From NCBI GenBank assembly GCA_963528845.1, contig CAURXJ010000001.1, positions 103,378-167,377 on the forward strand: DNA of 64,000 bases. The letters are read 5' to 3'. This document shows, piece by piece, positions 52-59,831 of this stretch. Under the pieces are notes generated by a model. That model had not been told where the DNA came from, ran no database searches, and saw only the letters and a program-made list of their open reading frames with translations. The position numbers were made by a program, and so were the translations under genes. How positions within the stretch are numbered: the stretch's first letter is position 1; every line of letters starts with the position of its first letter. The DNA is from an uncultured Capnocytophaga sp. (GTDB lineage: Bacteria; Bacteroidota; Bacteroidia; Flavobacteriales; Flavobacteriaceae).

Positions 52-141
52 CAGTGGTCAGTGAACAGAAAACAGTGAACAGTGAACAGTGAACGGTGAA
101 CAGAGGTCAGTTGTCATTAATCATTAATCATTGTTCATTGC
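52..141. repeat. Bipartite heptamer tandem-repeat tract (CAGTGAA-type units, then TCATTAA-type units) overlapping the ddl stop
   Basis: Units cagtggt/cagtgaa/cagaaaa/cagtgaa x3/cggtgaa/cagaggt at 52-107, then tcattaa x2, tcattgt, tcattgc at 114-141. Confidence 0.9.
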
Positions 142-1101
142 TTCTTCTATTGCATTGTCAAAGAGGTTTGTTAGTGAGATACCCGCAGCTTTAGCCTGTT
201 GAGGGAGGATACTATTCTTGGTTAGTCCAGGGGTGGTGTTCATCTCCAATAGGTGAGGTACCCCCCCGACAAGGATATATTCACTACGGCTGAATCCCCT
301 CATTTGTAATAGGTTATAGACCCTTAGGGCGACTTCTTCTACTTTCTTTCTTTCCTCTTCACTTAGGCGAGCAGGGGTGATTTCTTTGCTTTTACCCTGG
401 TATTTCGCTTCATAGTCGAAGAAATCATTTTCGGATACAATCTCAGTGATGGGCAACACTCGTTTTTTGCCATGGTAGGTAATCACTCCTACAGAGACTT
501 CGGTTCCCTTGAGGAATTCCTCAATGATTACCTCAGTATCCACCTCGAAAGCCTTTTCTATAGCCTGATCAATATCCTTTTCGTCGTAAGCCTTGAAGAC
601 TCCTATGCTACTGCCAGATCGATTAGCCTTGACAAAGCAGGGCAAGCCTACTGTTTTGATAATCTCGCGAGTGGAGAAAGGTTCTCCTTGGTTCAGGTAA
701 TAAGCTTTTGCCCGAGGGATACCATAAGGCTTGAGCACCGAGAGCATATCTCGCTTGTTGAAAGTCAGTGCTGAAGCATACATGCTACAGCCAGTAATAG
801 GTACACCCACTAGGGCAAAATACGCCTGTAAGTGGCCATCCTCCCCAGGGGTTCCATGGATGGCATTGAAAGCACAATCGAAGGTGATTTTCTTCCTCTC
901 TAGGGTCAGAGAGAAATCATTCTTATCTACCAGAATTTCTTGACCAAGGGTGTCGGTATATACCCATTTTTCTTTGGTAATCAGGATACGATAAGCTGTG
1001 TATTTGCTCTTGTCCAAGTACTCAGCTACAGTGGCAGCACTTTGGAGAGAAACGGCAGCCTCTTGGGAGAAACCTCCCATAAGTATGGCGATATTTTTCA
1101 T
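124..1101 (-). CDS. ddl: D-alanine--D-alanine ligase
   Basis: IAILMGGxSxE, AIHGTPGEDG, GSSIGV and LEMNTTPG motifs; ATG at 1101 (MKNIAIL) preferred over the TTG at 1131. Confidence 0.95.
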   Translation of the reverse strand: MKNIAILMGGFSQEAAVSLQSAATVAEYLDKSKYTAYRILITKEKWVYTDTLGQEILVDKNDFSLTLERKKITFDCAFNAIHGTPGEDGHLQAYFALVGVPITGCSMYASALTFNKRDMLSVLKPYGIPRAKAYYLNQGEPFSTREIIKTVGLPCFVKANRSGSSIGVFKAYDEKDIDQAIEKAFEVDTEVIIEEFLKGTEVSVGVITYHGKKRVLPITEIVSENDFFDYEAKYQGKSKEITPARLSEEERKKVEEVALRVYNLLQMRGFSRSEYILVGGVPHLLEMNTTPGLTKNSILPQQAKAAGISLTNLFDNAIEEAMNND

Positions 1102-1145
1102 GGTATGCTTAGAAATTTGTCTTTTAATCAATCTAAATAGCGGGG

Positions 1146-1153
1146 CAAATGTA
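1146..1153 (-). promoter_or_regulatory. Bacteroidota -7 promoter element (TACATTTG) for ddl
   Basis: Matches TAnnTTTG shortly upstream of the start. Confidence 0.65.
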
Positions 1154-1203
1154 CGAAAAATCTTTTAAAGAAAAAACAAATTAGGACGCCTATTTGTCTC
1201 TAT

Positions 1204-2541: not shown

Positions 2542-2578
2542 AAAATATGGATTTGGCTAATGAACACAAATAGCACCG

Positions 2579-2586
2579 CAAAATTA
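2579..2586 (-). promoter_or_regulatory. -7 promoter element (TAATTTTG) for the MATE gene
   Basis: TAnnTTTG match upstream of the start. Confidence 0.6.
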
Positions 2587-2721: not shown

Positions 2722-2729
2722 TAATTTTG
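2722..2729 (+). promoter_or_regulatory. -7 promoter element (TAATTTTG) for the ketoacyl synthase gene
   Basis: TAnnTTTG match upstream of the start. Confidence 0.6.
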
Positions 2730-5292: not shown

Positions 5293-5330
5293 CAGTGAGC
5301 AGTGAACAGTGAATGGAGAGCAGAGAGCAG
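5293..5330 (+). repeat. CAGTGAR/CAGAGAG heptamer tract after hemL
   Basis: cagtgag cagtgaa cagtgaa tggagag cagagag cag. Confidence 0.8.
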
Positions 5331-5366
5331 TTGTCAGGATGTTATGACAGTTGCTCTCTGTTTTTT
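5321..5366 (+). terminator. Rho-independent terminator after hemL
   Basis: CAGAGAGCAGTTGTCA / TGACAGTTGCTCTCTG stem with two G-U pairs, followed by T6. Confidence 0.85.
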
Positions 5367-15359: not shown

Positions 15360-15364
15360 ACGTT

Positions 15365-15392
15365 GTTAGTTTTTAGTTTTGAATTTTGAGTT
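15365..15392. repeat. AGTTTTT/AATTTTG heptamer tract upstream of the aconitase start
   Basis: gttagtttttagttttgaattttgagtt. Confidence 0.6.
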
Positions 15393-15394: not shown

Positions 15395-15512
15395 TGTAGG
15401 GGCGAATGCTGCTTATTCAACCGCATTTTCCGTTTACTTAAGGGCGAATTTTGGCTCATTTAAGGGCGAATTGCCTCACATACTCCACTTGTCCGCGGAC
15501 TTCGCCCCTACA
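15395..15512. mobile_element. GTAG-family REP/REPIN-like miniature element
   Basis: Perfect 12-bp terminal inverted repeat TGTAGGGGCGAA (15395-15406) / TTCGCCCCTACA (15501-15512); internal direct repeat TTAAGGGCGAATT at 15438 and 15460. Confidence 0.7.
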
Positions 15513-15540
15513 GTTAGTTTTTGTAAATTATTTTTTGATT

Positions 15541-19067
<3,527 letters not shown>

Positions 19068-29658: not shown

Positions 29659-29664
29659 CTCTTT

Positions 29665-29697
29665 TAATTATCAATTGTTAATTATCAATTATTAATT
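29665..29697. repeat. AATTATC/AATTGTT heptamer tract upstream of mnmG
   Basis: aattatc aattgtt aattatc aattatt aatt. Confidence 0.75.
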
Positions 29698-29808
29698 CTG
29701 TGATACGCATGCCTAATTTTTAAAACATTCGTAATGCCACAAATATTAATCATTAGTTGTCTATTGCATCAAACTAAATAGAGAAATTATACCATTCCAA
29801 CTCCTGTA

Positions 29809-29845
29809 TAATTGACAACTAACAATTATCAATTAATAATTATTG
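29809..29845. repeat. AATTGAC/AATTATC heptamer tract at the 3' end of the pseudogene
   Basis: aattgac aactaac aattatc aattaat aattatt. Confidence 0.75.
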
Positions 29846-32585: not shown

Positions 32586-32588
32586 TAT

Positions 32589-32680
32589 AGTTTTGAATTT
32601 TTGAATGCTGAGTTTTCAGTTATATCAGGGAGCAATTACTGTTCACTGCTCACTATTCACTGCTTACTGCTCACTGACCT
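32589..32680. repeat. Bipartite heptamer tract between typA and the ClC gene
   Basis: On the - strand: cagtgag cagtaag cagtgaa tagtgag cagtgaa after the typA stop, then aaaactc agcattc aaaaattc aaaact before the ClC start. Confidence 0.85.
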
Positions 32681-34520: not shown

Positions 34521-34552
34521 AGTTTTTAGTTTTTAGCGATTAGTTTTTAGTT
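34521..34552. repeat. AGTTTTT heptamer tract
   Basis: agttttt agttttt agcgatt agttttt agtt. Confidence 0.75.
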
Positions 34553-34606
34553 ATTTAACGTGAAGGGTCAATAGAGGCTCTTAGCAACCTTATAAACTAA
34601 AAAACA

Positions 34607-36967: not shown

Positions 36968-38833
36968 CTATCCCTCTTCACTTTTGATAGAGAGTTCCAA
37001 CCAGCGATCACTTTTTTCCTCCAAGAGAGTTAATACTTCACTGAGGGCTTGGGATTGTTCCTGTAGTTCTTCACTGGAGAGTGCCTCTTGAGTAAAATGT
37101 GCTTCAATGGTTGCCTTCTGAGCTTCTAACTGAGCAATTTCCTTCTCCAAGCGAGACAATTCACGTTGCTCATTTTGAGAAAGAGTACTATTAGCCCCGC
37201 GCCATGAGTTCTTCGTGGCAGGGGCTTTTTCTTCTTTTGGAGTTTCCCTGACAGAAGACTGTTCATAGGAGAAATAATCGGAATAGTTGCCAGGAAAGTC
37301 CTGTACCTCACCCTCCCCTTTGAAAACAAAGAGGTGATCTACTATCTTATCCATGAAATAACGATCATGGGAGACAATCACCAAGCAACCTTCATAATCC
37401 AAAAGGAACTCTTCTAAGACATTGAGCGTAACGATATCAAGGTCATTGGTAGGTTCATCCAGAATCAGGAAGTTCGGATTCTGAATCAGGACAGTACAGA
37501 GGTAGAGACGCTTGCGCTCACCCCCACTGAGTTTCTCTACATAGTCATATTGTTTCTTGCGGTCAAAGAGAAAGCGTTCTAGTAGCTGTGCTGCCGAAAG
37601 GGTACGCCCCTTGAGCAAAGGGATATATTCGCCATACTTCTTAATCACATCGATCACCTTTTCCTGTGGGTTGATCTCAATTCCTTGTTGGGTATAATAG
37701 CCAAACTGTACAGTTTCCCCTATGATAATCTTACCGGCATCAGGAGTGATTTTCCCAGTGAGTAAGTTTAGGAAGGTACTCTTGCCCGTACCATTCTTAC
37801 CAATGATTCCCACCCTTTCCCCACGCTTGAATACATAGGAAAAGCGGTCGAGAATCGTTTTTTCAGGGAATTTTTTCACCACATTGTGTAGTTCAATAAT
37901 CTTGCTCCCTAGGCGTTGCATAGCGATTTCCAGCTCTACTACATGTTCGCGACGGCGCTTTTGAGCTTGTTCCTTGATCAGGGCAAAGTCATCAATACGC
38001 GATTTGCTTTTGGTGGTACGTGCCTTAGGCTGGCGGCGTATCCAGTCTAACTCACGTACATATAGGTTCTTTGCTTTTTCTTGAGAGGCTTGTTCCTGCT
38101 CAAGGCGCTGCTGTTTTTTTTCCAAGAAATAAGTATAGTTCCCTTTGTAACTATATAGGGTACCTTCGTCCAATTCTAAAATTTCATTACACACCCTCTC
38201 TAAAAAGTAGCGGTCGTGGGTTACCATGAAGAGGGTCATCTTTTCCTTGGCAAAGAAGTTCTCCAGCCACTCAATCATCTCAAGGTCAAGGTGGTTGGTA
38301 GGCTCGTCCAGGAAGATAAGGTCGGGCTTGCTAATGAGCACATTGGCAAGAGCAAGCCTCTTGCGTTGCCCTCCTGAGAGGTGCTTGATAGGCAAGTGTA
38401 GGTTGGTGAGTTTCAGCTGAAAGAGGATTTGCTTGTATTGGGTCTCGAAGTCCCAAGCCTCATGGCGTTCCATAGCTTCAAAAGCTTTTTGGTAGGTTTC
38501 CTCATCTTCAGGGTGTTCCAAGGCATGCTCGTACTGCTGAATGACCTTCAGAATAGGGTTTTCCTCTTGGAAGATATAGTCCTCAATAGTCAGCTTTTCT
38601 GGCAGCGCAGGTTCCTGAGAGAGAAAGGCTATTTTCAGCCCTTTGCGAGAGACTACTTGCCCTGTATTGGGTGTGTCTTGCCCAATAAGGATTTTCAAGA
38701 GCGAACTCTTACCCGCACCATTCTTAGCGATGAGGGCTATTTTTTGGTCTTTGTTGATCCCAAAAGACACATTCTCGAAGAGAACTCGCTCTCCATAAGC
38801 TTTGGATATGTTTTCTACAGATAAATAATTCAA
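36968..38833 (-). CDS. ABC-F family ATP-binding protein (Uup-like), probable TTG start
   Basis: Two ABC domains (NGAGKS/LSGGQ/LDEPTNHLD and NGTGKS/LSGGE/LDEPTNDLD) plus C-terminal coiled coil; the ORF-track extension to 38869 is translated heptamer repeat. Confidence 0.9.
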   Translation of the reverse strand: MNYLSVENISKAYGERVLFENVSFGINKDQKIALIAKNGAGKSSLLKILIGQDTPNTGQVVSRKGLKIAFLSQEPALPEKLTIEDYIFQEENPILKVIQQYEHALEHPEDEETYQKAFEAMERHEAWDFETQYKQILFQLKLTNLHLPIKHLSGGQRKRLALANVLISKPDLIFLDEPTNHLDLEMIEWLENFFAKEKMTLFMVTHDRYFLERVCNEILELDEGTLYSYKGNYTYFLEKKQQRLEQEQASQEKAKNLYVRELDWIRRQPKARTTKSKSRIDDFALIKEQAQKRRREHVVELEIAMQRLGSKIIELHNVVKKFPEKTILDRFSYVFKRGERVGIIGKNGTGKSTFLNLLTGKITPDAGKIIIGETVQFGYYTQQGIEINPQEKVIDVIKKYGEYIPLLKGRTLSAAQLLERFLFDRKKQYDYVEKLSGGERKRLYLCTVLIQNPNFLILDEPTNDLDIVTLNVLEEFLLDYEGCLVIVSHDRYFMDKIVDHLFVFKGEGEVQDFPGNYSDYFSYEQSSVRETPKEEKAPATKNSWRGANSTLSQNEQRELSRLEKEIAQLEAQKATIEAHFTQEALSSEELQEQSQALSEVLTLLEEKSDRWLELSIKSEEG

Positions 38834-38836
38834 GGG

Positions 38837-38935
38837 ATAATGATTAATGATTAATGATTTAATGATCAATGGATAATGATCAATGATTAATCGTTATTGG
38901 CATTAATCATTAATCATTATTGGCATTAATCATTA
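38837..38935. repeat. Inverted pair of AATGATT/AATCATT heptamer tracts between recN and the ABC-F gene
   Basis: aatgatt-type units at about 38839-38890, then complementary aatcatt/ggcatt-type units to 38935. Confidence 0.9.
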
Positions 38936-40588
38936 GATTTTTAAAAGTTCTTTCGCATGGGCGCGGGCGGAGTCGGTAATATCCTTTCCTCCGAGCATCT
39001 GGGCGATTTCCTCTATGCGCTGCTCTGGGCTAAGCTCTTGGAACTGGGTGGTGGTGCGGCCTGCGATGTCGGTTTTGTATATCTTGATATGTACATCCCC
39101 CTTACTGGCTACCTGTGGCAAGTGAGAGATGGCAAATACCTGTCGGCTCTGACTCATCTGCTTCATGATCTCTCCCATTTTGTGGGCTATTTCTCCCGAA
39201 ACGCCTGTGTCTATCTCGTCAAAGATAATGGTAGGTAGCGCTATTTTGGCGGCTAAAATATGCTTGATAGTGAGCATGATACGAGAGAGTTCCCCGCCAG
39301 AGGCGGTTTTCTTGAGCACTCCGAAATTCCCCCCTTTGTTGGCGGAGAAGAGGAAAGAAAGGCTGTCATTGCCCTTGGCTTGGTAGTGCTCAGTAGGAGT
39401 TAGGCTGATTTGGAACTGCGCATTGGGCATTCCCAAGTCCTTAAGAGAATCCTGTAGGCTCTTGGTGAGCGTAGGGATTACCTTCTCACGTACCTTGTGG
39501 AGTTTTTGAGCAAGTGTACTGAGGGTTTGGAAGGCCTTCTCTACTTCTTTTTGGGCAATCTCGATATCTCCTTCTATATTTTCCATTTGGGAGACTTTCT
39601 CTTCCAAAGCCTCTTTGATAAGGATAAGTTCAGAGACGGTACTTACCTTGTGTTTTTTCTGTAAGTCATAGAGTTTTTGGAGTTTTTTCTGAGCACGGGC
39701 GAGCTTTTTGGGGTCGAACTCCACGTTCTCGGCCAGGTCATACACCTCGCGGGAGAGGTCATCCAGCTCTATATAGGCGGCGTCGATACGTTCATAGAGT
39801 TCGCTGTACTGGGGCGAATAGCTACTTAGGGTGGAGAAGAGCGAGGAGAGATCGCGCATTTGGGTCATGATTCCCTGTTCCTCTTCAGCCAAGAGATTCG
39901 CTGCCTCAGTGAGGTTGTCCCTGATGGTCTCACTATTGGAGGCTTGGTTGTAGAAAGCCTCCAATTCCTCTTGCATACCTTCTTCCAGCTCAATCTCCTG
40001 TAGTTCGGAAAGTACGAAAGTATTGTAATCGTGTTCCTTTTGGGTATTTTCCTGAAAGGTCTTGAGTTCTTGGAGCTTTTTGCTTTCTCCTTTGTATACC
40101 TTTAGAGCGGCTTGGTATTCCTCCAATAAGGATGTATTCTCAGCTAAAGAGTCTATGAGAAAGAATTGGAAATCTTCCTCACTGAGCTGCTGGGTATCGT
40201 GCTGGGAGTGGATATCAATGAGAGCTTTTCCTAAGGAAGAAAGAACATCGAGGGTTACAGGACTATCGTTGACAAAGGCACGAGACTTACCCGAAGGGAG
40301 AATCTCCCGACGAATAATGGTCAGTGGTTCGTAGTCTAATTCTTCCTGTTGGAAAAAATCAGCCAGGCCATAGCTTGCGATAGCAAACTCAGCTTCTACG
40401 ACACATTTTTCTTCAGGATTTCTCAGCGCACTCAGGTCTGCCCGACGGCCTAAGACCAAAGCAAGCGCATCCAGGAGGATAGACTTCCCTGAGCCTGTCT
40501 CTCCTGTGATAATAGTAAAGCCCTTCGAGAAATGAATCTTGATGTCCTCAATAAGGGCAAAGTTCTTGATAGCTAATGATTGTAACAC
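38933..40588 (-). CDS. recN: DNA repair protein RecN (GTG start)
   Basis: ITGETGSGKS, IHSQHD, ASGGELSR, IFDEIDTGVSG and SHLPQVA motifs. Confidence 0.97.
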   Translation of the reverse strand: MLQSLAIKNFALIEDIKIHFSKGFTIITGETGSGKSILLDALALVLGRRADLSALRNPEEKCVVEAEFAIASYGLADFFQQEELDYEPLTIIRREILPSGKSRAFVNDSPVTLDVLSSLGKALIDIHSQHDTQQLSEEDFQFFLIDSLAENTSLLEEYQAALKVYKGESKKLQELKTFQENTQKEHDYNTFVLSELQEIELEEGMQEELEAFYNQASNSETIRDNLTEAANLLAEEEQGIMTQMRDLSSLFSTLSSYSPQYSELYERIDAAYIELDDLSREVYDLAENVEFDPKKLARAQKKLQKLYDLQKKHKVSTVSELILIKEALEEKVSQMENIEGDIEIAQKEVEKAFQTLSTLAQKLHKVREKVIPTLTKSLQDSLKDLGMPNAQFQISLTPTEHYQAKGNDSLSFLFSANKGGNFGVLKKTASGGELSRIMLTIKHILAAKIALPTIIFDEIDTGVSGEIAHKMGEIMKQMSQSRQVFAISHLPQVASKGDVHIKIYKTDIAGRTTTQFQELSPEQRIEEIAQMLGGKDITDSARAHAKELLKI

Positions 40589-40589
40589 G

Positions 40590-40670
40590 AATTCAATGAT
40601 TAATGTTCAATGATTAATGTTCAATGATTGAATAACAATAGTATTAATCATTGCTGGCATTAATCATTAT
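40590..40670. repeat. Inverted pair of heptamer tracts between the nitroreductase gene and recN
   Basis: (aatgatt aatgttc) x2, aatgatt, then aatcatt..ggcatt aatcatt. Confidence 0.85.
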
Positions 40671-41188
40671 TGAAGGTTTCCTATAAAAAATATTCCATAA
40701 CATTCCTGATTCTCAGCAAGATGTAGGAAATTTTTCAGTTTGGGGGCAAAGGCAGGGGTTCCCCAATAACACCCCAGCTCATAGGCAGTACATAGCAAAT
40801 ACATATTCTGTACCGCCATAGCTACAGCAGCGACTTCCTCCCACTGGGGAACCTTCCCGCTGAACTCCACAGCAATGGAGATAATGGTATCTGCTTTGGC
40901 CACTTTCTGAGCGAGAGTATTGTAGGTATCCTCGGAGAATTTCTCTGCAGGGACATGCTCTTTGTAGAGGCGCTGGAGTTCGGCACTCAAGGCTGTTTTC
41001 TCTTCTCCACGGAAGGCTTTCAGGCGCCAAGGCTTGGTTTTCTTATGGTTAGGCGCATAAGTGGCGATGTCCAAGATATCCTCGATAATCTCTTCAGGGA
41101 TGGGTGTGCTGGTATAGTCCGCAGGGAAAATACTCTTGCGGGACTTGATAATGTGCTTTATAAGAGTTGCAGTGGTATTCATGATCAA
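40667..41188 (-). CDS. Nitroreductase family protein (YdjA-like)
   Basis: IKSRKS, APNHKKTKPW and AVQNMYL..G.YW motifs; true start may be the ATG at 41182. Confidence 0.88.
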   Translation of the reverse strand: MIMNTTATLIKHIIKSRKSIFPADYTSTPIPEEIIEDILDIATYAPNHKKTKPWRLKAFRGEEKTALSAELQRLYKEHVPAEKFSEDTYNTLAQKVAKADTIISIAVEFSGKVPQWEEVAAVAMAVQNMYLLCTAYELGCYWGTPAFAPKLKNFLHLAENQECYGIFFIGNLQ

Positions 41189-41234
41189 TTTTAGAGTTAA
41201 TAATGATTAATGGTCAACTAAGTAATTATTGGTG

Positions 41235-43692: not shown

Positions 43693-44161
43693 TGATGTCG
43701 TTTTGAGTTTTAAGATTTGAGTTTTGAATTTTCTTATTTCCTAATGCCATTTTGCTAAGGACAATTCCCATAATAATCCCTATGATTAGTACAGGGATGC
43801 TTCCCAAAAGTAATATAATGAAAAAATACCCCCATACGTCCTCTGAACCCTCTGGGAAAAAGATGATATAAGCAAAGGTAAATGAAAAGATACCACTTGC
43901 CCAAAACACAGTAAGAATAAGCTGTACTCCCAAGAAAAACCGTACTAAGGGAGAGAGTTCTTCAAAAGGGACAACCCGCTCTCCTGCAAAATATCCTAAA
44001 ACAAAAGAGATTAAGGCAAAAGGAAGTATAATAAGGAGGGATCCTAAAAATATTTCACCTCCGATATCACTCTCACCTCCTGTATAGATGGCGAGAGCTA
44101 AGAAAATTAAAACAATTTCTATTCCAATCGTTCTAAGGATACATCCAGTTGCGGGTTTCAT
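43667..44161 (-). CDS. Small multi-pass membrane protein, paralog 3 of a tandem trio
   Basis: About four hydrophobic helices; MKPATGCIL..IEI start at 44161 matches the paralogs; C-terminal tail reads through AAAACTC repeats and overlaps the M23 gene start. Confidence 0.75.
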   Translation of the reverse strand: MKPATGCILRTIGIEIVLIFLALAIYTGGESDIGGEIFLGSLLIILPFALISFVLGYFAGERVVPFEELSPLVRFFLGVQLILTVFWASGIFSFTFAYIIFFPEGSEDVWGYFFIILLLGSIPVLIIGIIMGIVLSKMALGNKKIQNSNLKTQNDINECKKEIK

Positions 44162-44627: not shown

Positions 44628-44641
44628 TTTGATATAATCAT

Positions 44642-45082
44642 TTACTCTTCACTCTTCATTTTCCTGAGTCTCATTCCCAGCCAGATACCTACCCCTAAGG
44701 TCTGTATTCCTCCGAAAATAAGGAAGACAAGAAAGAGAATTCCTAAGTCATTCCAATTAAAATAAAAAAGGGAGTAGTGGGCATTTTCTACAAAGTATCC
44801 GGTAAGAACTCCTTCGAAAAGTAAGAAAAAAAGAATGATAATCCCTAAGTAGATTTGTAAGGCACGCGGTTGTCGCTCAAAAGGGAAAAATTCACCTATG
44901 AGGATACCCAAAACAACACACATAAGTACCCCGCTTCCTATAGGGAGAAGATTTCCTTTAAAATCGCTAAAGAAACCAACATGGTTCGTGGTTATTAGAA
45001 AATTCACACTCTCATAGGTTAGTAGAGCCAAGAGTACTTCTATGGCAATAGCGATAAGGATATATTGCGTTGCTTTTTTCAT
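44642..45082 (-). CDS. Small multi-pass membrane protein, paralog 1
   Basis: MKKATQYIL..IEV start; LGILIGEFFPFER motif shared with neighbours. Confidence 0.75.
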   Translation of the reverse strand: MKKATQYILIAIAIEVLLALLTYESVNFLITTNHVGFFSDFKGNLLPIGSGVLMCVVLGILIGEFFPFERQPRALQIYLGIIILFFLLFEGVLTGYFVENAHYSLFYFNWNDLGILFLVFLIFGGIQTLGVGIWLGMRLRKMKSEE

Positions 45083-45144
45083 CTGTATACAAATTTAGGT
45101 AATTAGGGAGTAGTGGGTGCCGCTCACTGCTCACTAATATTTTG

Positions 45145-47173: not shown

Positions 47174-48875
47174 GCTGGTTTGGAATTTTCTACCTACCCC
47201 CCAGCAGAATGAGGTAGAGACCCTCGCCTCTGCCCTTTTTCAGGTACAAGAAATACTCCCCTGGCATAGGACTATAGCGAGCCTACTCTTACAAAGAGGA
47301 ATTGCAACTGTAGAGCAAGCTAAGACATTCTTCAATCCATCCCTGTCGGATCTTTTCAATCCTTTTCTGATGAAGGACATGGATAGAGCTGTGGAGCGCA
47401 TTCTTTTGGCTATGGCACATAAGGAGCGTATTCTCATCTATGGAGATTACGATGTGGATGGTACTTGTTCGGTAGCACTCTTGTACCTCTTCCTTTCGAA
47501 GATCTACCCAGAGGTAGCCTATTATGTACCGGATAGGTATAGGGAGGGCTATGGGGTCTCCTGTGAGGGGATTGACTTTGCTCAGGATAATGAGATGTCA
47601 CTTATCATCACCTTGGACTGTGGTATCAAAGCCCATGATAAGGTGCTCTATGCTCGTGAGCGAGGGATTGATATGATTATCACCGATCACCATACTCCCG
47701 ATGATACGATCCCTCCGGCGGTAGCTGTACTCAATCCTAAGCGCACTGACTGTTCTTATCCCTATAAGGAACTCTGTGGCTGTGGCATTGGCTTTAAGCT
47801 CATTCAGGCGCTTTGTAAATCCTTAGGCTATCCCCTTGAGACAGCCTATGCTTATTTGGACTTGGTTGCCTTGGCTACTTGTGCGGATATTGTTCCTATC
47901 ACAGGAGAAAACCGAATATTAGTCTCGGCCGGCCTTAAACAGATAAATGAGCGCCCCTCTGAAGTGATGCAATTACTTCTCTCAACGGCTAATCCTCCGA
48001 TTCAGGTCAGGGACTTAGTTTTTGTGGTAGCTCCTCGGATCAATGCTGCTGGGCGTATGAACCATGCTTCTCGTGCAGTGGATTTTCTCATAGGGGAATC
48101 CATGGGAGAAGCTACACTTCTGGAACACTTTAACACCCAGCGAAAAACAGCCGATGAGCAGATTACTCAGGAAGCCCTAAGCCAGATTCTGCACTCTCAT
48201 GAAGAAGATGCCCCTGCTACAGTGGTTTTTTCTCCTCATTGGCATAAAGGGGTGATTGGGATTGTTGCCTCACGCCTTACAGAAATTTACTATCGTCCTA
48301 CGATTGTCTTTACTCAGAGTGGGGAAGTATTGGCAGCCTCAGCCCGTTCGGTTAGGGGGTTCAACCTCTATGAGGCACTCTGTGAGTGTAAGGACGAGCT
48401 TATCCAGTTCGGCGGGCATACTGCGGCGGCTGGGATGACACTGCTTCCGGAGAATTACCAGCGCTTTAAGCAGAAATTCCAAGCAGTGGTGGATCGTACC
48501 CTACCACAGGAGCTTCGCTCTCCTACAATTATGATAAGTGCTAAAATGCCCTTATATGCGATTACTTCTTCTTTCTATCGCTGTTTGCAGCGCTTTTCTC
48601 CCTTTGGGCCTAAGAATATGACTCCCATCTTTCAGGCAGATGAGGTCATTGCCAAGAGTGTTTCCTTGGTAGGGAGTGATTGTAGCCACTTGCGTATGAT
48701 CCTTACAGATACTTCTCTCAAACAGGAATTTGTGGCTATTGGCTTTGGATTAGGTCATAAGAAAGAAGCAGTAGAAAGCGGAAAGCCTTTTACTATAGCT
48801 TATGAACTGTCTGAAAATCATTGGAGAGGCACTACTTCTTTACAATTGGTCGTAAAAATGATCAATGATCAATGA
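47163..48875 (+). CDS. recJ: Single-stranded-DNA-specific exonuclease RecJ
   Basis: YGDYDVDG, TLDCG, TDHH, PRINAAGR and FGGH..AAG motifs. Confidence 0.96.
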   Translation: MPSKLVWNFLPTPQQNEVETLASALFQVQEILPWHRTIASLLLQRGIATVEQAKTFFNPSLSDLFNPFLMKDMDRAVERILLAMAHKERILIYGDYDVDGTCSVALLYLFLSKIYPEVAYYVPDRYREGYGVSCEGIDFAQDNEMSLIITLDCGIKAHDKVLYARERGIDMIITDHHTPDDTIPPAVAVLNPKRTDCSYPYKELCGCGIGFKLIQALCKSLGYPLETAYAYLDLVALATCADIVPITGENRILVSAGLKQINERPSEVMQLLLSTANPPIQVRDLVFVVAPRINAAGRMNHASRAVDFLIGESMGEATLLEHFNTQRKTADEQITQEALSQILHSHEEDAPATVVFSPHWHKGVIGIVASRLTEIYYRPTIVFTQSGEVLAASARSVRGFNLYEALCECKDELIQFGGHTAAAGMTLLPENYQRFKQKFQAVVDRTLPQELRSPTIMISAKMPLYAITSSFYRCLQRFSPFGPKNMTPIFQADEVIAKSVSLVGSDCSHLRMILTDTSLKQEFVAIGFGLGHKKEAVESGKPFTIAYELSENHWRGTTSLQLVVKMINDQ

Positions 48876-48963
48876 TTAATGAACAATGATTAATGATTAA
48901 TGAACAATGATCAATGACTGCTCACTGTTCACTGTTTTCTGCTCACTATTCACTGCTCACTGA
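48857..48963. repeat. Bipartite heptamer tract (AATGATY/AATGAAC, then CTGYTCA) overlapping the recJ stop
   Basis: About 8 aatgatc/aatgatt/aatgaac units, then ctgctca ctgttca ctgtttt ctgctca ctattca ctgctca. Confidence 0.92.
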
Positions 48964-52534: not shown

Positions 52535-54148
52535 ATGTTAGCAACACAGAATCCTACACAGACCAAGGCTTGGGCGGCCTTAGAAGCTCATTTTGCTAAG
52601 GTAAAAGATGTTACCTTACAACAACTCTTTGCACAAGATGCAGCACGTGCTCCCAAGTATACCCTCCAGTGGGAAGACTTTTGGGTGGACTACTCCAAGA
52701 ACAATTGGGATGAGACCACCCGTAATCTCCTTTTGCAATTGGCTGAAGAATGCGACCTAAAGGCCTCTATTGAGAAGTATTTCACAGGTGACAAGATCAA
52801 CGCTACCGAAGGCCGTGCAGTACTCCATACTGCCTTGCGCTCGGCTGAGAAAGAAATCTTGGTCAATGGGCAAAATGTCATCCCTGAAGTAGCCCAAGTA
52901 AAGGCCAAAATTAAGGATTTCAGTCAGGAAATCATCTCTGGTAAGCGCAAAGGTTATACAGGCAAGCCCTTTACCGATGTGGTGAATATCGGTATCGGTG
53001 GGTCGGACTTAGGTCCTGTGATGGTTACCGAAGCCCTGAAGTTCTACAAAAATCATCTCAACATTCACTTTATCAGCAATGTAGATGGCGATCATGTACA
53101 TGAAGTGATTAAGCATCTCAACCCTGAGACTACTCTTTTTGTGATTGTTTCTAAGACTTTTACCACACAGGAGACCCTCTCCAATGCCCTTACAGTGAAA
53201 AAGTGGTTCCTCAAGCATGCCAAAGAGGCTGATGTGGCTAAGCACTTCGTAGCGGTTTCCACTAACCTCAAGAAGATAGATGAGTTCGGTATTGCCCCTG
53301 AGAATGTATTCCCTATGTGGGACTGGGTAGGGGGGCGTTTCTCCTTATGGAGTGCCGTAGGGCTTACCATTGCCCTTTCAGTAGGCTATGAAAACTTTGA
53401 AGCGCTCCTTTTGGGTGCCCAAAAGATGGATACCCACTTCCGCACCGCATCCTTCAAGGAAAATCTTCCGGTGCTCTTGGCCTTGCTCTCTGTATGGTAT
53501 ACCAACTTCTATGGGGCAGAGACCGAAGCTATTATCCCCTATACCCAATACCTACATCGCTTCCCTGCCTACTTGCAACAAGCTATTATGGAGAGTAACG
53601 GAAAGTATATAGACCGTAGTGGACAGCGTGTCAGTTACCAGACGAGCGCCATCGTATGGGGAGAGCCAGGAACGAATGCTCAACATGCGTTTTTCCAACT
53701 CATTCACCAAGGTACCAAGCGCATTCCTGCCGACTTCATAGGCTTCAAGCACTCACTCTATGGAGATAAGGATCACCAAGATAAGCTCTTGGCTAATTTC
53801 TTTGCACAGACCGAAGCGCTCATGAATGGCAAAACACCAGAACAGGTACGTGCCGAGGGGGTAGCGGAACACTTAGTGCCTTTCAAGGTATTTGAGGGGA
53901 ACAAGCCTACCACTACCCTGCTTATTGACAAGCTCACCCCTGAGAGCCTTGGTAAGCTCATTGCCCTATACGAACATAAGATTTTCGTACAAGGGGTGCT
54001 ATGGAATATCTATAGCTATGACCAATGGGGAGTAGAACTCGGTAAGCAATTGGCTGGCACTATACTAAAGGACTTCTCAGCTGCCCATCCAGCCAAGCAT
54101 GATAGCTCCACTTTGCAACTTATTGAAAAAGTGAAGAGTGAAGAATGA
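52535..54148 (+). CDS. pgi: Glucose-6-phosphate isomerase
   Basis: [37 protein letters not shown] and DQWGVELGK motifs. Confidence 0.98.
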
Positions 54149-54228
54149 AGAAAGAATAGTGAATATTCAGTTGTTCACTATTCACTATTAGCTAATCATT
54201 GATAATTAACCATTGACAATTAACCATT
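54132..54228. repeat. Heptamer tracts between pgi and the TA module
   Basis: agtgaag agtgaag aatgaag overlapping the pgi end; AATAGTGAA/TTCACTATT inverted pair; then aatcatt gataatt aaccatt gacaatt aaccatt up to the ATG. Confidence 0.85.
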
Positions 54229-54489
54229 ATGAATGCCTTAACCCCTCAATTCCTTAACGATGAAGACGGCAACGCTATGTATGCTGTGCTTCCTATAGCG
54301 CAATACAACGAGCTCTTAAGCCGAGCGATGGAGGAAGAAACCGATTTTTATTATGAACTCACTGATGAGGAAATCGCCTATTTTGAGAGAGCAGAACAGC
54401 TATCAAAAGAAGGAAAAGTTGTCAGTAGTGAGGAAGTACGTAAAAAAGTAAGAGAAAAATATGGTAGTAAAATGGCTGATAGAAGCTGA
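54229..54489 (+). CDS. Putative type II antitoxin
   Basis: 86 aa acidic protein with QFLNDEDG...AVLPI..Y N-terminus and GKVVSSEEV C-terminus; overlaps the downstream toxin gene. Confidence 0.7.
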   Translation: MNALTPQFLNDEDGNAMYAVLPIAQYNELLSRAMEEETDFYYELTDEEIAYFERAEQLSKEGKVVSSEEVRKKVREKYGSKMADRS

Positions 54490-54754
54490 AAGTAAGTACT
54501 ATGAAACGCTTGACTATTGGGAGGAACATAATGGTTCTTTTAATTATTCCCTTAAGATAATCCAAGCTGTTGAAAATTTGGAGGATAATCTCGCCGAAAA
54601 CCCCTATTTTTCAGCTAAGTATAGTAAGAAATTAGATTTGTACAAAAGATTCTTTCTAAATGGAAGATTTGCGCTTTATTATAAAGTAGATGAAGAAAAT
54701 CAGACTGTAGAGATAAGAGATTTCAGAAGTACTAAGCAACTACCTGTTTTTTAA
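54461..54754 (+). CDS. RelE/ParE family type II toxin
   Basis: 97 aa; V.W...A, L..NP, and ALYYKVDE...VEI..F pattern typical of RelE/ParE. Confidence 0.8.
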   Translation: MVVKWLIEAESKYYETLDYWEEHNGSFNYSLKIIQAVENLEDNLAENPYFSAKYSKKLDLYKRFFLNGRFALYYKVDEENQTVEIRDFRSTKQLPVF

Positions 54755-54782: not shown

Positions 54783-57700
54783 ATGATCAAGCAAGAACAA
54801 GCCGAAAAGTTCCTAGCCAAGTATGAGCCAAAGGAACTCAAAGAAGCCGATTTAGCTTCTTTCTCCGCTCCCTATCAGCAGTTGGGTGCGTATATTACTG
54901 GCCTTATGGAATATGAAGAAATAGGAGCTTTCGAACAAGAGTTTGCCTCCTACAATTTCCCTGATAAGCTCTGGGAGAGCAAGGAAGGAAAGGCACTTGC
55001 CTTGCTACTCTTTGGTAAGGAAATAGCCCCTTACGCGCAGCGTGTCTGGGACTCTCTGCTGGCCTATCCCTACCTAAGATGGTGGGGGCGTCGCCCTTTC
55101 CGCTCGGAAAATCCTGCCGACTATACCGAGGTGCAACTCTCTAAGATGTCTACACTGCATAACTATTATGGCTCAGGGGTGGGCGTGTTGCCTATAGCCG
55201 AGCAATTCCAATATGTGATCTATAGGGAGTATAATGTGGAGGAGTTCTTTGCTTTGGTGCTTTCAGAGAATCCTGATGCTTACTATGCGCTTTTTAAGGA
55301 CATTTTCTCCAGCGAACACGAGATAGGGGGCGTATGTACCGTACTGATTAAGGCCGCCCTAATGGTGGAAGATACGCGTTACCGCACTTTGGTGGAGAAA
55401 CTTCTTTTAGCCGCTCAGCTTCAGGAAGGCTTGAGACAAACAATCTTGGAATCCTTGGACGGCACCTCTTTGGCTTCCTTACAGCACTTTATAGGAGTCA
55501 TTCTCCAGCACAACCTCACCCGCTTTAGCAGTGTGGTACGTGCGGTAGATGTATGGTTTGGTTTTGGCTGGGAAGCCCCCCAACAGCCGGTGATCAAGCG
55601 TACTTTGGAGCTGGCACAAACCTTCCTTGCTGATCACACAGCTGCTGAGAAAGCAGTGAGTAGTAAGGACAATATAGAACGCTATGTCGCCCTATGGGCG
55701 GTGGGGGTACACAGTGTACAACAGGCTATCAGCTTAGCGGTGAAGGCAATCCAAGACCCTCAGACAAGTCATGAGGGGCGTATCGTTACCCTCTACTTTG
55801 TACGAGAAACTGGAAGAACCGACTGGGAGATAGCCACTTATGCGGAAAACCATTTCGGAGAAGCGGCTGATTTGGACTGTTGGCTCTTGCAGAACCTCCC
55901 CGAGGGCAGCCTCTCCCCATTGCTTTTTGACCGTATGCAGGCGGTTGCCAAGGCGCTACCTAAGGAGGGCAAACACTTTGAGGGTGTGGGCTTCCGTTGG
56001 CTCAACTTTACCCTAAAGTCGCAGGATATCTACCGATTTCTCATAGGTGAGGCCAATGAGGAGCAACAAGAACACTTGGCAGGTGAACTCTCGGAAATTC
56101 CTGTAGAGGTGCGCCAGAACCTTCTGCAGAATGTGTATCCAGTGCTGGGTCGCGGGCGCTACTATTACGAGAGTCCAGCAGAGAAGAAAAAGAAACCTGA
56201 AAAATATCCAGCCGACTCTTGGCAGCGTGCCTTGGTACGTACCGCCCTAAATGATAAAGCTTCTTATGTAGCCGAGATTGCTTTTGAGATTCTTAAGAAA
56301 GTACCTTTAGTGCATGACGATATCTTGGCGATAGAGCAGGTACTCTCCCGCAAGAACAAGGAACAGCGCAAGGAGAGTGTGGCACTACTTATCAAACAAC
56401 CCGAAGCAGTACTTAAGGATAGTACTTCTCGTATGATTGTCTCCAAGAGTGCCGACCAGCGCTTGGCGGCTTTGGAAATCTTGACTGTACTTCAGGAGGA
56501 AGAAAGGCTTACCGATTATGTAACTGAGCAAGTAGAAGCCTATAAGGGTCGTAAGCTCACCAAGAACGAGCAGGTGCTAATGGACAAGCTCGCCTACAAC
56601 CTTGATGAGACAGGGGAGCAGCGCTATGACCTCTCCAATGGTTTTGGCGTGATTGATTTTGACAGGCTTACGCCTTTTGCCTTGCCTCAGCCTCAGTTTG
56701 ATAAGGAGCGCAAGGAAAAAAAGGGCTTCCTCTTTGACAAAATCATAAGGGTGGAGAAAGTACGAGAAGCCCTTAACGACCTATTAGCCCTATGGCGCAA
56801 GAACAAAGACTACGAATATGCTTGTGAGTGGTACCAAGGGGAAACAAGGACACAGCTACTGGGGCAACAAATCTATCGAATGCATGCTACCAAAGAGGGC
56901 GAAACCCCTATGGAGGTGCTCGAAGATTATCCTTTGGCAGCGCTGTGGAAAGACTGGCACCAAAAGCACCAGCTCAATGAGATAGAGTACCAGTATGCAA
57001 TCCGCTATTGTCAAAATCTTTATTATGAAAACAAAGTACCCAAGCAACTAAAGGACTATCTGGCAGGCTATTATCCTGACTTTAAGGTAGCTTTCAAGGG
57101 TGATTTGGGAAATTATTACGACAGTGAAGCCCGCCGCTTGGAAGATCTTTTGACCCCTATAAGCGAGGCTTATGCCCAGGACAAGGCGTTTTTGGCCAGC
57201 TTCAAGCTCTCTGTTTTTGAAGATGTGTTGGCTACCTATCCACCTGAAAAGCGCCACATAACCATAGAGCGTGATTACGAAGATTTGAGCTGGACAGATG
57301 TCATCCAAGACTATGTCATCTCTATAGACCAAGATGAAGAAGGGGATATAGAATACTATACCCCTGAGCAGCGCTTTAAGCTCTGGCAGTTGCTTTACTA
57401 CACTTATGCCCAAAAACAAACTAAGAACGACCTTTCTTCTTATACCCCTCAGAGCGTACTGACAGGGCTACGTGCCAAGGTACGTGAGGACGAACGCCTA
57501 CCAGGGATAGGAGGAAGTCTGATGGGGCTTACCCTGAACCTCTACCAAAAAGGCCAACTCTCGGCAGATGACCTCTTGTTCTTCTGCCTTTTGGAGGACG
57601 AACTCTTTACCATAGTCCAAGGAGAAGAAAACTACTTCTACCGAAGACTGCCTGAGGCACTCAAAACTTCGCTTACCTTCCCCGACACCCAGCTGGAGCA

Positions 57701-59792
57701 GCTCAAAACACGTATGCTCCAGTTAGAACTACAACGTGGCGACCTACCTACCGATGCTTCTATCTATATACAATACCTCCAAGAGGTAGAGGGCATGCAC
57801 TACTTCTTTGAGGCCTTGGAGCGTATGGGCAAGGAGCCTTTTACTAAGGGCTATTACTACGGCAGTAGTGTGACCAAGCGCCATACTTTTAGCCATATCT
57901 TGCAGGTGAGCCAGCCGAGTGCGACGGATACTTTTGCAGCCTTTAAGGCACATCTGGACAAGACCAAAATCACCGACAAGCGCTTGGTGGAAGTTGCTTG
58001 TTACGCCCTACATTGGGCTGACTGGATAGGGGACTACCTCCAGATCAAGGACTTCAAGGAGGCTATTTGGTGGTTTATCGCTCATACCACTGATTATATG
58101 GACGCAGAGAAAGAAACGATTGTCTCCCAATACTCTACTGTACCACGTGATGACTTCCAGCGTGGAGCTATAGATGTGGATTGGTATCACCGCATACATC
58201 AGTCAGTAGGCAAAGAGGGCTGGAAACTGATCCAAGAGTCGGCCAAGTACCTCTCCGAGGGTATGGGGTATCGCCGCGTAAAGCTCTATTCTGCGGTGCT
58301 TACAGGCGAGATTAAGTTGGACGAAGTCATCCAAAAAATCACCGAAAAGCGCGACAAAGACTATGTGATGGCATTGGGTCTGGTGCCTATCAACAAGAAA
58401 AAAGAAGAGGAAGACTTAGTACATCGCTATAACCTCTTGCAAACCTTCCTCAAGGAAAGCAAGCAGTTCGGTCAGCAGCGCCAAGAGAGCGAGAAGAATG
58501 CCGTGGAGATAGGCTTGGATAATCTCTCCCGCAATGCAGGCTATGAAGATAGTATCCGCTTTAGCTGGGCAATGGAGGCCAAGGCTACCCAACAGATTAT
58601 GGAAAAAGCCACCCTCACCTTGGACGATACTACGATTAGGCTGGTGATTGACGATCAAGGCAAGGCAGAGCTGGAAGTCACCAAAGGCGACAAGACCCTC
58701 AAGTCTGTCCCTGATAAGTATAAGAAAGACAAGCAGGTAGAATCCCTTAAGGAAGGAAAAACCTACCTAACCAAGCAGTACAGCCGTACCCGCCTATCTT
58801 TAGAACAAGCAATGCTCTCCCAAACCTTATTCTCTGTAGCGGAGCTCAATAGAATTATGGAACACCCTGTGGTAAAGGCTATGCTGAGCAAGCTCGTGCT
58901 GTTCAATCCAGAGACACAGGCTTCAGGCTTTTGGCAAGATGGCAAGCTAATCAGTGCAGAAGGAGAGAAGGTTACACTCAAAGCGGAAGACAAACTCCTG
59001 ATTGCCCACCCAAGCCATTTGTTCTATGCGGTACAATGGGATTTGTACCAAAAGTATCTGTTTGACAAGGAACTCAAACAACCTTTCAAGCAGGTATTCC
59101 GAGAATTGTATATTCCTACTAAGGATGAGCTGGAGACCAGTAACCGCAGTGAGCGCTACCAAGGTCACCAAGTACAACCTCAGAAGACAGTGGCGCTGCT
59201 CCGTGGTCGTGGCTGGACAGTCAATTATGAGGAGGGACTCCAAAGAGTATATCATAAGGAAGGATTCCGTGCGACGATCTATGCGGCAGCTGACTGGTAT
59301 ACCCCTTCGGATGTAGAAGCACCAACTCTGGAATATGTAGTCTTCTACAGCCTTAAGGATGGCAAGGAAGTACCGATGAAGGAGATAAACCCAGTAATCT
59401 TCAGCGAGGTGATGCGCGATGTGGATTTGGTGGTGAGTGTAGCTCACGTAGGAGGAGTAGATCCTGAAGCAAGTCATAGTACTATGCAGATGAGAGCAGC
59501 CTTGGCTAGAGAGAGTGCGCGCCTCTTTAAGCTCACCAATGTGGAGGTTAAGGAGCGACATATCCTTGTCAAGGGCAAGCTGGGCGAGTACAGCATCCAC
59601 TTGGGCAGCGGTATGGTAAGCCGAGGGGGCTTGCAGCTGAGCATCCTTGCGGTACAGAGCCAGCACCGCGGACGGGTATTCCTACCTTTTGTGGACGACG
59701 ATCCCAAGTCGGCAGAGATTATCTCCAAGATGCGCCTACTTGCCGAGGACGACAAGATCAAGGATCCTACAATACTTAGCCAGATTAAGTAA
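54783..59792 (+). CDS. Giant helical DUF4132-type protein (1669 aa), paralog 1
   Basis: LQEGLRQTILE, RFSSVVRA..VW, ESKQFGQQRQ, QPFKQVFRELY, FSEVMRDVDLVVSVAH and FLPFVDDDPK motifs typical of DUF4132-family proteins. Confidence 0.85.
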   Translation: MIKQEQAEKFLAKYEPKELKEADLASFSAPYQQLGAYITGLMEYEEIGAFEQEFASYNFPDKLWESKEGKALALLLFGKEIAPYAQRVWDSLLAYPYLRWWGRRPFRSENPADYTEVQLSKMSTLHNYYGSGVGVLPIAEQFQYVIYREYNVEEFFALVLSENPDAYYALFKDIFSSEHEIGGVCTVLIKAALMVEDTRYRTLVEKLLLAAQLQEGLRQTILESLDGTSLASLQHFIGVILQHNLTRFSSVVRAVDVWFGFGWEAPQQPVIKRTLELAQTFLADHTAAEKAVSSKDNIERYVALWAVGVHSVQQAISLAVKAIQDPQTSHEGRIVTLYFVRETGRTDWEIATYAENHFGEAADLDCWLLQNLPEGSLSPLLFDRMQAVAKALPKEGKHFEGVGFRWLNFTLKSQDIYRFLIGEANEEQQEHLAGELSEIPVEVRQNLLQNVYPVLGRGRYYYESPAEKKKKPEKYPADSWQRALVRTALNDKASYVAEIAFEILKKVPLVHDDILAIEQVLSRKNKEQRKESVALLIKQPEAVLKDSTSRMIVSKSADQRLAALEILTVLQEEERLTDYVTEQVEAYKGRKLTKNEQVLMDKLAYNLDETGEQRYDLSNGFGVIDFDRLTPFALPQPQFDKERKEKKGFLFDKIIRVEKVREALNDLLALWRKNKDYEYACEWYQGETRTQLLGQQIYRMHATKEGETPMEVLEDYPLAALWKDWHQKHQLNEIEYQYAIRYCQNLYYENKVPKQLKDYLAGYYPDFKVAFKGDLGNYYDSEARRLEDLLTPISEAYAQDKAFLASFKLSVFEDVLATYPPEKRHITIERDYEDLSWTDVIQDYVISIDQDEEGDIEYYTPEQRFKLWQLLYYTYAQKQTKNDLSSYTPQSVLTGLRAKVREDERLPGIGGSLMGLTLNLYQKGQLSADDLLFFCLLEDELFTIVQGEENYFYRRLPEALKTSLTFPDTQLEQLKTRMLQLELQRGDLPTDASIYIQYLQEVEGMHYFFEALERMGKEPFTKGYYYGSSVTKRHTFSHILQVSQPSATDTFAAFKAHLDKTKITDKRLVEVACYALHWADWIGDYLQIKDFKEAIWWFIAHTTDYMDAEKETIVSQYSTVPRDDFQRGAIDVDWYHRIHQSVGKEGWKLIQESAKYLSEGMGYRRVKLYSAVLTGEIKLDEVIQKITEKRDKDYVMALGLVPINKKKEEEDLVHRYNLLQTFLKESKQFGQQRQESEKNAVEIGLDNLSRNAGYEDSIRFSWAMEAKATQQIMEKATLTLDDTTIRLVIDDQGKAELEVTKGDKTLKSVPDKYKKDKQVESLKEGKTYLTKQYSRTRLSLEQAMLSQTLFSVAELNRIMEHPVVKAMLSKLVLFNPETQASGFWQDGKLISAEGEKVTLKAEDKLLIAHPSHLFYAVQWDLYQKYLFDKELKQPFKQVFRELYIPTKDELETSNRSERYQGHQVQPQKTVALLRGRGWTVNYEEGLQRVYHKEGFRATIYAAADWYTPSDVEAPTLEYVVFYSLKDGKEVPMKEINPVIFSEVMRDVDLVVSVAHVGGVDPEASHSTMQMRAALARESARLFKLTNVEVKERHILVKGKLGEYSIHLGSGMVSRGGLQLSILAVQSQHRGRVFLPFVDDDPKSAEIISKMRLLAEDDKIKDPTILSQIK

Positions 59793-59805
59793 GCCGTAAG
59801 CAGAA

Positions 59806-59831
59806 GTCATTAACCATTAATCATTAACATT
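59806..59831. repeat. AATCATT/AACCATT heptamer tract before the second DUF4132 gene
   Basis: gtcatt aaccatt aatcatt aacatt, immediately before the ATG. Confidence 0.75.

Follow-up and report, generated by a model that had tools for sequence, protein, structure and literature searches.

Gene junctions of an uncultured Capnocytophaga species carry degenerate tandem repeats of 7 nucleotides, and sequence comparison suggests that these heptamer tracts mark small hairpin cassettes that have been gained, emptied and replaced at the same junctions. The stretch under study, here called the window, is the 64,000 nucleotides from position 103,378 to 167,377 of contig CAURXJ010000001.1 (assembly GCA_963528845.1); it was compared with the other contigs of its assembly bin and with genomes of the genus, 31 in the widest searches. 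We refer to the tracts as arms, G-type where the strand read carries the G-rich unit and C-type where it carries the complement. The same junctions occur in several states (with cargo, decayed, gene-less, with one arm or without arms), arms gain and lose length in 7-base steps, and whole gene-less hairpins stand at unrelated loci. At about even odds, we take the arms to be the ends of non-autonomous hairpin elements, resembling intervening sequences (IVSs), that are resized by slippage and retained for the stop codons and start contexts that they supply.

Counts for the bin pool at least three species, and the main tests were repeated on portions of two genomes of about 2.7 Mb each, 0.89 Mb of G007 and 0.73 Mb of G008; 0.40 Mb of the distant genome G002 was also compared.

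Frame and polarity of the heptamer arms

Sixteen period-7 tracts were found in the window, where periods 2 to 6, 8 to 13 and 15 gave none or one each; period 14, a harmonic of 7, gave 11, and TRF concurred with the period-7 count. The bin holds 386 period-7 tracts against 4 to 42 for periods 4 to 6 and 8 to 12, and only 26 of the 386 lie inside open reading frames (ORFs), so that the arrays are mainly intergenic. A profile detector located 24 arms in the window, compared with 1 to 7 in five shuffles, and 22 of these lie in the 7% of the window that gene ends and junctions occupy. The same detector placed arms at 260 of 1,892 junctions of the bin, with none in shuffles, and at 5 of 377 junctions of G002.

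A preliminary description of the window had divided the units into several separate families. They prove to follow one frame, A-R-T-K-N-N-N on the G-rich strand, in which A1 and T3 are kept in 96% and 92% of 1,688 units (percentages biased upward, since the register was picked to maximise the A-R-T-K fit) and positions 4 to 7 are variable. The commonest units are AATGATT, AGTGAAG, AGTGAAA and AATTGTT; neither of the published units, the quadruplex-forming GGGAATC or TAACTGA, is dominant among the arms here.

Polarity is non-random beyond the window, in the bin, G007 and G008 alike. By crude ORF calls, under which a tract may count twice, bin tracts after a stop were G-type in 131 cases, C-type in 44 and tied in 6, and those before a start were C-type in 109, G-type in 20 and tied in 3. 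Neighboring bin tracts of clear type less than 300 bases apart (n = 93) ran G then C in 59 cases, C then G in 2 and alike in 32. Multi-arm junctions had the order G..C in 55 of 69 cases in the bin, across all four gene orientations, in 42 of 48 in G008 and in 9 of 9 in G007, and no reversed pair occurred among the 126 multi-arm junctions of the three data sets. The polarity is symmetric under reverse complement, the arms facing each other whatever the orientation of the genes. As such it has been published before for other heptamers (Rehm 2015; MacGregor 2015, the latter for the start side) and is not new.

Within the window, reading the junctions against gene names confirmed a period-7 tract at every junction for which one had been listed. 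Tracts of the G type stand after or across the stops of ddl (AATGATT; 105 to 140, minus strand), hemL (a lone AGTGAGC/AGTGAAC arm; 5293 to 5335, plus), icd (AATGATT; 15540 to 15581, minus, 14 bases shorter in G007), typA (AGTGAGC; 32634 to 32682, minus, with a different unit in each of G007, G008 and G025), recN, the nitroreductase gene, recJ and pgi. The companion claim, that C-type tracts precede starts, held for acn, the aconitase gene (AAAACTC family; 15362 to 15392, minus), ClC (degenerate; 32586 to 32622, minus, equal in frame and length in G007, G008 and G025), ABC-F, recN, the M23 peptidase gene (AAAACTC; 43700 to 43732, minus), an antitoxin-like ORF and the second DUF5724/DUF4132 gene (DUF4132-2; 59805 to 59832, plus). 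It needs qualification at three places. The M23 arm does precede the start and lies inside the 3' end of a 170-amino-acid (aa) membrane ORF; the C tract on the recJ side (48917 to 48962) stops about 150 bases short of the ccoG start; and the AAAAACT arm near typA (34521 to 34557, minus) lies not at a start but upstream of a TAnnTTTG sequence, which we take to be a promoter-like motif.

Matched arms can pair, as had been proposed for the two junctions beside recN. The AATGATT hairpin from the recN stop to the ABC-F start (38832 to 38935, minus) folds at -32.8 kcal/mol over 38826 to 38940 (z -6.9 versus shuffles), and that from the nitroreductase stop to the recN start (40590 to 40670, minus) at -19.6 kcal/mol over 40585 to 40675 (z -3.6). 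The mismatched ddl (z 0.18) and typA-ClC (z -0.89) junctions fold no better than shuffles, the recJ junction folds locally only (z -2.8), and the pgi junction is marginal (z -1.9). An Rfam search of the window gave zero matches.

Turnover, cargo and copies of the hairpins

The junction between mnmG and the acyl-ACP thioesterase gene holds a decayed cassette in the window. Ahead of the mnmG start stands its downstream C-type arm (AATTATC/AATTGTT family; 29664 to 29697), followed by an inner arm (29807 to 29845), the remnant of a four-helix-bundle (4HB) gene of family TIGR02436 (29846 to 30005), which this inner arm trails, and a shrunken upstream G arm within the last codons of the thioesterase gene (30016 to 30026), all on the minus strand. 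The remnant reported earlier is real, having lost about 190 internal bases relative to the intact 128-aa ORF of G008. The gene is frameshifted in G007, and in G025 the whole cassette is absent from an 8-base junction with no detectable arms. TIGR02436 matches stand at sites orthologous to that of the window remnant.

Four states were found across nine sequences at murE-mraY, a junction outside the window. It is arm-free in G018 and G022, the latter of which may hold a decayed trace; it carries AGTGAA-type arms with a 4HB gene in G007, G014, G015, G023 (partial) and bin contig C4; it has an AATGATT arm, repetitive extragenic palindromes (REPs) and a REP-associated transposase gene (NF047646, 95.6 bits, cut-off 80) in G008; and it retains a lone C arm, identical to the C arm of G008, in G025. 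At some sites, cargo does lie between arms, and the fixed junctions murE-mraY and mnmG-thioesterase have seen exchange of cargo and of arm family. The suggestion that mismatched arms are scars of loss is borne out to the extent that loss of the middle does produce mismatched or lone arms, as in G025 at murE-mraY. Its counterpart, that matched arms are primitive empty sites, fails, since the plain junctions (G018 and G022 at murE-mraY, G025 at mnmG) have no detectable arms.

Other junctions also changed their arms. Between recN and the ABC-F gene, G015 and G014 have matched arms of other families, and G007, G008 and G025 have an arm-free 166-aa gene, so that the allele with a gene lacks arms and the allele with arms lacks a gene, at odds with the proposal that arms are the borders of inserts. 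The nitroreductase-recN junction has other matched families in G025 and in G008 and G015. Of the two arms at typA-ClC, the one beside ClC has been retained and the one beside typA is different in each of the four genomes compared, the flanks being 96 to 99% identical to G007. The presence of arms is nevertheless shared across species (P = 7e-5, 1e-5 and 0.002 for junctions of at least 40 bases). The dominant unit differed by at least 2 letters in 21 of 29 comparable arms between species and in 4 of 16 within the species, a comparison that is crude for composite arms. Within the species, indels were multiples of 7 in 7 of 12 cases in arms versus 2 of 52 elsewhere, and most arm change at this level is slippage; three contig sets that probably contain DNA of mixed strains have 21- and 7-base indels at arms. 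Substitutions reached 6.0% in arms versus 2.9% in other intergenic DNA.

The 4HB gene, by TIGR02436 matches, is present in 26 of 31 genomes of the genus. Across 30 loci, many of which share a site and are not independent, the tract upstream of the gene was G-type in 22, C-type in 3 and absent in 5, and that downstream was C-type in 14, G-type in 5 and absent in 11. The 4HB genes thus lie inside facing arms, opposite to the rule for host genes at their own starts and stops, and this reversed layout implies that polarity belongs to the element and not to the translation of each gene. The arms around these loci form a duplex with z below -3 in 13 of the 30, and the loci are flanked by protein genes and not sited in a 23S rRNA helix. 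Genes bracketed in the order G-gene-C were enriched for ORFs of at most 200 aa (8 of 15, versus 8 of 73 in the order C-gene-G; P = 7e-4), at least two of these small bracketed ORFs looking spurious. The bracketed cargo includes Uma2, cREC, YetF-type and REP-transposase genes (the scan covered 7 proteins, of which 6 came from the 15 brackets).

We also noted a phage major-capsid-like gene between facing G and C arms in G008, arms of period 8, not 7, flanking the 4HB gene in some congeners and, by coordinates, a 4HB gene in G025 that lies on the strand of the RNase III gene, about 470 bases downstream of it (C20:33674-35102).

Whole hairpins recur at unrelated places. Among 49 spacers of 9 to 30 bases between facing arms there were 16 similar pairs, against a mean of 0.17 and a maximum of 1 in 30 shuffles. 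One loop family comprises 9 spacers between AGTGAC-type arms at unrelated junctions and in both orientations; these gene-less copies number five in G008 and four in the bin. A strict pattern for this shared-loop hairpin gave six copies, all of them in G008, G015 and G023, the remaining 28 genomes having none, and the orthologous junctions, where readable (3 cases), held a different hairpin. A giant spacer cluster is held together by REP sequences and gene ends. Compound units of the two hairpins of the window recur at 5 to 11 bin places. Facing arms match each other more often than permutation predicts in the bin (22 of 71, 13.6 expected, P = 0.007) and in G008 (27 of 55, 11.0 expected, P < 0.0005); the excess in G007 (4 of 13, 2.7 expected, P = 0.25) is not significant.

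Several sequences accompany these hairpins. The shared-loop hairpin stands beside a tRNA-like sequence, identified by eye, at G000:C29:18200-18350 (G000 being the bin) and in G015:C82. A noncoding element of about 280 bases, with 15-base inverted ends and two G/C-rich hairpins, lies between AATGATT arms at G000:C2:105720-105990 and, in the opposite orientation, at G000:C15:6830-7085; its arm-to-end joint occurs at 5 bin places and 4 in G008, one of which is next to a REP transposase gene. The REP-associated transposase gene at G008:C12, about 165620 to 166420, is preceded on the left by a palindrome headed by CGTC and followed on the right by related palindromes, with 19 copies in the compared part of G008. 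An earlier survey reports no transposase gene flanked by CGTC repeats (Di Nocera 2013, PMC3733652).

Origin of the arms

The element that we envisage would consist of a G arm, an optional cargo, usually a 4HB gene, and a C arm. It would land at the point where one gene's last dispensable codons give way to the start region of the following gene; there its G arm would take over the stop codon and its C arm the start context; because the arms would then hold the stop codon and start context, they would outlast the decaying cargo. Mismatched or lone arms would result from deletions and rearrangements between different elements, and an old site might occasionally be overwritten by the copy of another hairpin or by the allele of a sister species. 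Our best guess is that single-stranded hairpins are copied by host recombination or repair, sometimes aided by passing element-encoded proteins; a dedicated resident recombinase is not favored. [quoted passage not shown]

Several observations weigh against this reading. About 260 bin junctions have arms, and the bin has two TIGR02436 hits, neither full-length; across 31 genomes arm load did not follow 4HB copy number (rho 0.17, P = 0.37), although the 5 genomes that lack 4HB genes had a lower load (P = 0.04), both statistics coming from related genomes that are not independent. In the bin 49 of 71 facing pairs are mismatched, and among two-sided layouts C-gene-G on ordinary genes is the most frequent (73 of 175), with G-cargo-C in only 15. 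No target-site duplication was evident at orthologous junctions, which are replaced rather than plainly interrupted and are about 78% diverged, and the direction of change at each site was read without a rooting tree. Gene ends adjacent to arms had no excess synonymous identity in 4 comparisons at both ends (all P at least 0.1), and arms as homing-like co-conversion tracts were rejected on this result. No mobilizing enzyme accompanies the arms consistently: the Y1 transposase PF01797 was found in 4 of 31 genomes and in 1 of the 7 arm-richest (more than 600 matches), other transposase families not having been searched, and the reverse transcriptase PF00078 in 3 of those 7 and not in the other 4. 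A resident reverse transcriptase, Y1 transposase or integron integrase was rejected as the engine, being missing from most arm-rich genomes. Two adjacent ORFs with reverse-transcriptase domains (open frames of 490 and 732 aa) were seen at G000:C11:26995-29042, and a like pair in G006.

Retention through host genes fits the composition of the arms. Of the 298 G arms that lie no more than 25 bases from a stop, 216 overlap the stop or the coding end, and TAA falls from 64% of stops overall to 38% where G arms overlap. Each unit holds 1.03 stops and 0.32 ATG in the G orientation and 0.55 stops and 0.02 ATG in the C orientation, and of 490 arms 404 have stops in all three frames in the former versus 273 in the latter. 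Since the G orientation is rich in stops and the C orientation poor in ATG, selection can keep arms and favor the orientation that suits the host genes. One could let this filter do all the work, with A-R-T-K seeds at gene ends growing by replication slippage and nothing moving, only G-type arms being tolerated after stops and only C-type arms, with no ATG and little G, before starts. We consider this unlikely, though a serious possibility: it accounts for the stop and ATG content of each orientation, for indels in sevens and for weak insert enrichment, and repeat loci in Xanthomonas are reported to be more conserved than controls (Rehm 2015, PMC4692102). Selection on stops and starts cannot, however, explain the reversed layout of the 4HB genes at their own starts and stops or the shared loops; these loops at unrelated loci, with matched pairs above chance, need copying. 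The filter is weakened further by the prevalence of C-type arms upstream of promoter-like motifs (78 C versus 30 G within 60 bases, by a crude motif), and it leaves the period of 7 unexplained. A more active scheme, which we regard as improbable, is that an Avd-like 4HB protein, alone or with a host polymerase, binds 7-periodic hairpin RNA or single-stranded DNA, writes it into junctions already holding the A-R-T-K frame and carries the loop contents with it, whether its own 4HB gene, a REP transposase gene, an endonuclease gene or nothing.

The dedicated system of the preliminary description, with arms serving as recombination borders to the left and right of small genes that are captured and exchanged, or looped out of operon mRNA, has in our view a decidedly low probability. 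Cargo exchange at murE-mraY, the small ORFs in G-gene-C brackets, the Uma2, cREC and REP-transposase cargo and an RNase III gene in 5 of 5 genomes agree with it; the arm-free empty sites, the arm-free insert at recN-ABC-F, the failure of mismatched arms to pair and an integron integrase (TIGR02249) over cut-off in 0 of 5 genomes do not. In the bin, convergent (47 of 248) and divergent (39 of 239) junctions, at which no single operon mRNA is expected, have arms as often as tandem ones do (174 of 1,405). Nor do the inserts named as cassettes behave as such. The putative toxin-antitoxin pair (54229 to 54754, plus; its toxin a weak ParE/YafQ-like match below cut-off) lies after a C arm, outside the arms, and G008 keeps G..C arms without it; the membrane trio is partly conserved, its homologues in G008 occupying the corresponding position; and within the window DUF4132-2 is accompanied by a C arm alone. 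The predicted enrichment of strain-variable inserts at arm junctions gave odds ratios of 0 to 15 (P < 0.05 in 3 of 8 in-clade comparisons) unfiltered and of 0 to 4.1 (0 of 8) for junctions of at least 40 bases, where the comparisons overlap, inserts include noncoding gains of more than 150 bases, and the length control may overcorrect because arms lengthen junctions. Just as doubtful to us is a post-transcriptional network in which each array binds an oligomeric RNA-binding protein, one unit per subunit. The A1/T3 frame kept over variable positions 4 to 7, and sites that persist while units change, would suit it, but load ranges from 8 to 1,293 pattern matches per genome within the genus (rough counts, since a reversed-pattern control also matches some arrays), the genes that flank arms share no function, and arms substitute twice as fast as other intergenic DNA. 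Telomere-like addition, with a polymerase adding G-type units 5' to 3' onto both ends of a break before these are rejoined, would yield G on the left and C on the right, in keeping with the absence of reversed pairs, with arms standing where the gene is missing at recN-ABC-F and with arm junctions somewhat more rearranged before length control. We think it very improbable, since PF00078 is not found in 4 of the 7 arm-richest genomes, shared loops imply that both arms were copied together, and the rearrangement excess mostly vanishes with length control.

Other features of the window and related repeats

The window has further arms. A C-type arm of the AGTGAAC family (51 to 103, minus), 5 units longer than in G007, stands directly before the next minus-strand gene start as the mismatched partner of the ddl arm. 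A short lone AGAGAGC arm lies in the divergent MATE/fabF spacer (2638 to 2661, plus), and a GTAG-headed REP-like palindrome, present in G007 too, is flanked by the facing arms of icd and acn (15396 to 15511). A weak C-type arm precedes the nitroreductase start (41195 to 41220, minus), a short AGTGAAG G-type arm lies at the stop of a 146-aa membrane ORF (44640 to 44660, minus), and the profile detector marked a short C-type arm upstream of tatA (45122 to 45135, plus). On the plus strand, an AATGATC G arm holding the recJ stop abuts a C arm of another family (48857 to 48962), and an AGTGAAG G arm holding the pgi stop is followed by C arms to the next start (54130 to 54228), as also in G008. Positions 54783 to 64000 contain two tandem DUF5724-DUF4132 paralogues of about 1,670 aa and about 70% identity, tandem in G007 and G008 too.

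The host bin (contigs C1 to C54) pools contigs of at least three related species, its listed contamination being 2.4%. Contigs C1 (the window), C5, C12, C28, C29 and C38 are 89 to 98% identical to G007, C24, C49 and C50 are 96 to 98% identical to G008, most other covered contigs are 75 to 83% identical to the compared parts of either genome, and C53 duplicates the clpX region. A first junction test was dropped because best-hit orthology was skewed by this mixture, and a revised junction comparison replaced it. G007 is collinear with the entire window; in G008:C16 and G025:C8 the genes of positions 1 to 60000 share a neighborhood in heavily shuffled order, with about 92% protein identity between species. 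The distant G002 was uninformative on arms as markers of synteny breaks, nearly all junctions differing. Between 37900 and 40600, identity to three other species climbs from about 80% to 87 to 96% around both recN junctions, which suggests recent cross-species recombination at this place. Such a rise is not a general feature of arm junctions, whose flanking codons gave no sign of co-conversion, and the recN rise is a local case.

In Xanthomonas and Nostoc, G-rich heptamers have their G-rich strand after stops or antisense before starts, 70 convergent inverted pairs occur in Xanthomonas campestris pv. campestris, and sites are usually kept between species while length changes (Rehm 2015, PMC4692102). 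The arms share with these repeats the period, intergenic location, polarity, convergent pairs and site retention; they differ in having many AT-rich units in one frame and no G-tracts, where the published repeat is a single G-quadruplex-capable unit, GGGAATC, and in the replacement of families at a site and the cargo between arms. Arrays of TAACTGA in Beggiatoaceae, cyanobacteria and five Bacteroidetes run forward directly before start codons, with one reverse set after a stop in Flexibacter, differ by 7-nucleotide indels between strains, occur in mixed heptamer assemblages in Flavobacteriia, and were treated as a translational signal and proposed to form a post-transcriptional network (MacGregor 2015, PMC4679880). 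The reverse complement of TAACTGA fits A-R-T-K as our arms do; it was treated as one sequence, and the paired-arm layout and 4HB link are features of the arms here.

The Coxiella 23S rRNA IVS (S23p) has a decaying 4HB ORF in a stem loop and variable-number tandem heptamers upstream of it (PMC4990558). Our elements resemble such ORF-bearing IVSs in placing a 4HB ORF between complementary arms, but an IVS lies within 23S rRNA and is excised by RNase III, whereas these lie between protein genes and are mostly gene-less. Like REPs, REPtrons and MITEs (Di Nocera 2013, PMC3733652), they are dispersed gene-less intergenic hairpins, GTAG- and CGTC-headed palindromes and a REP transposase gene occur between arms, and, as in MITEs, the same element with inverted ends stands at unrelated loci (9 junctions, and two loci for the 280-base element). 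Unlike those families, their stems are tandem heptamer arrays that overlap stop codons, and neither a tag tetranucleotide nor a target duplication nor a cognate transposase was found to go with them. No report of paired heptamer arms joined to 4HB genes outside rRNA was found in the literature, subscription papers and supplements not being covered.

Counts of intergenic heptamer repeats exist for many bacteria, with no origin assigned to them. In Capnocytophaga, close relatives differ a hundredfold in load, and individual junctions display every stage from arm-free site through cassette and emptied hairpin to lone arm, offering a small, tractable system for dating and testing the origin and turnover of such repeats; further work would be best spent on the turnover series and the shared-loop hairpin. 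Because most G arms overlap the stop codon, the repeats rewrite the ends of proteins, and cargo other than the 4HB gene can sit between them. Should loop contents indeed be copied and replaced by a 4HB protein, this would explain the long-noted excess of heptamers in bacteria, and gene junctions would be retargetable slots for cassettes.

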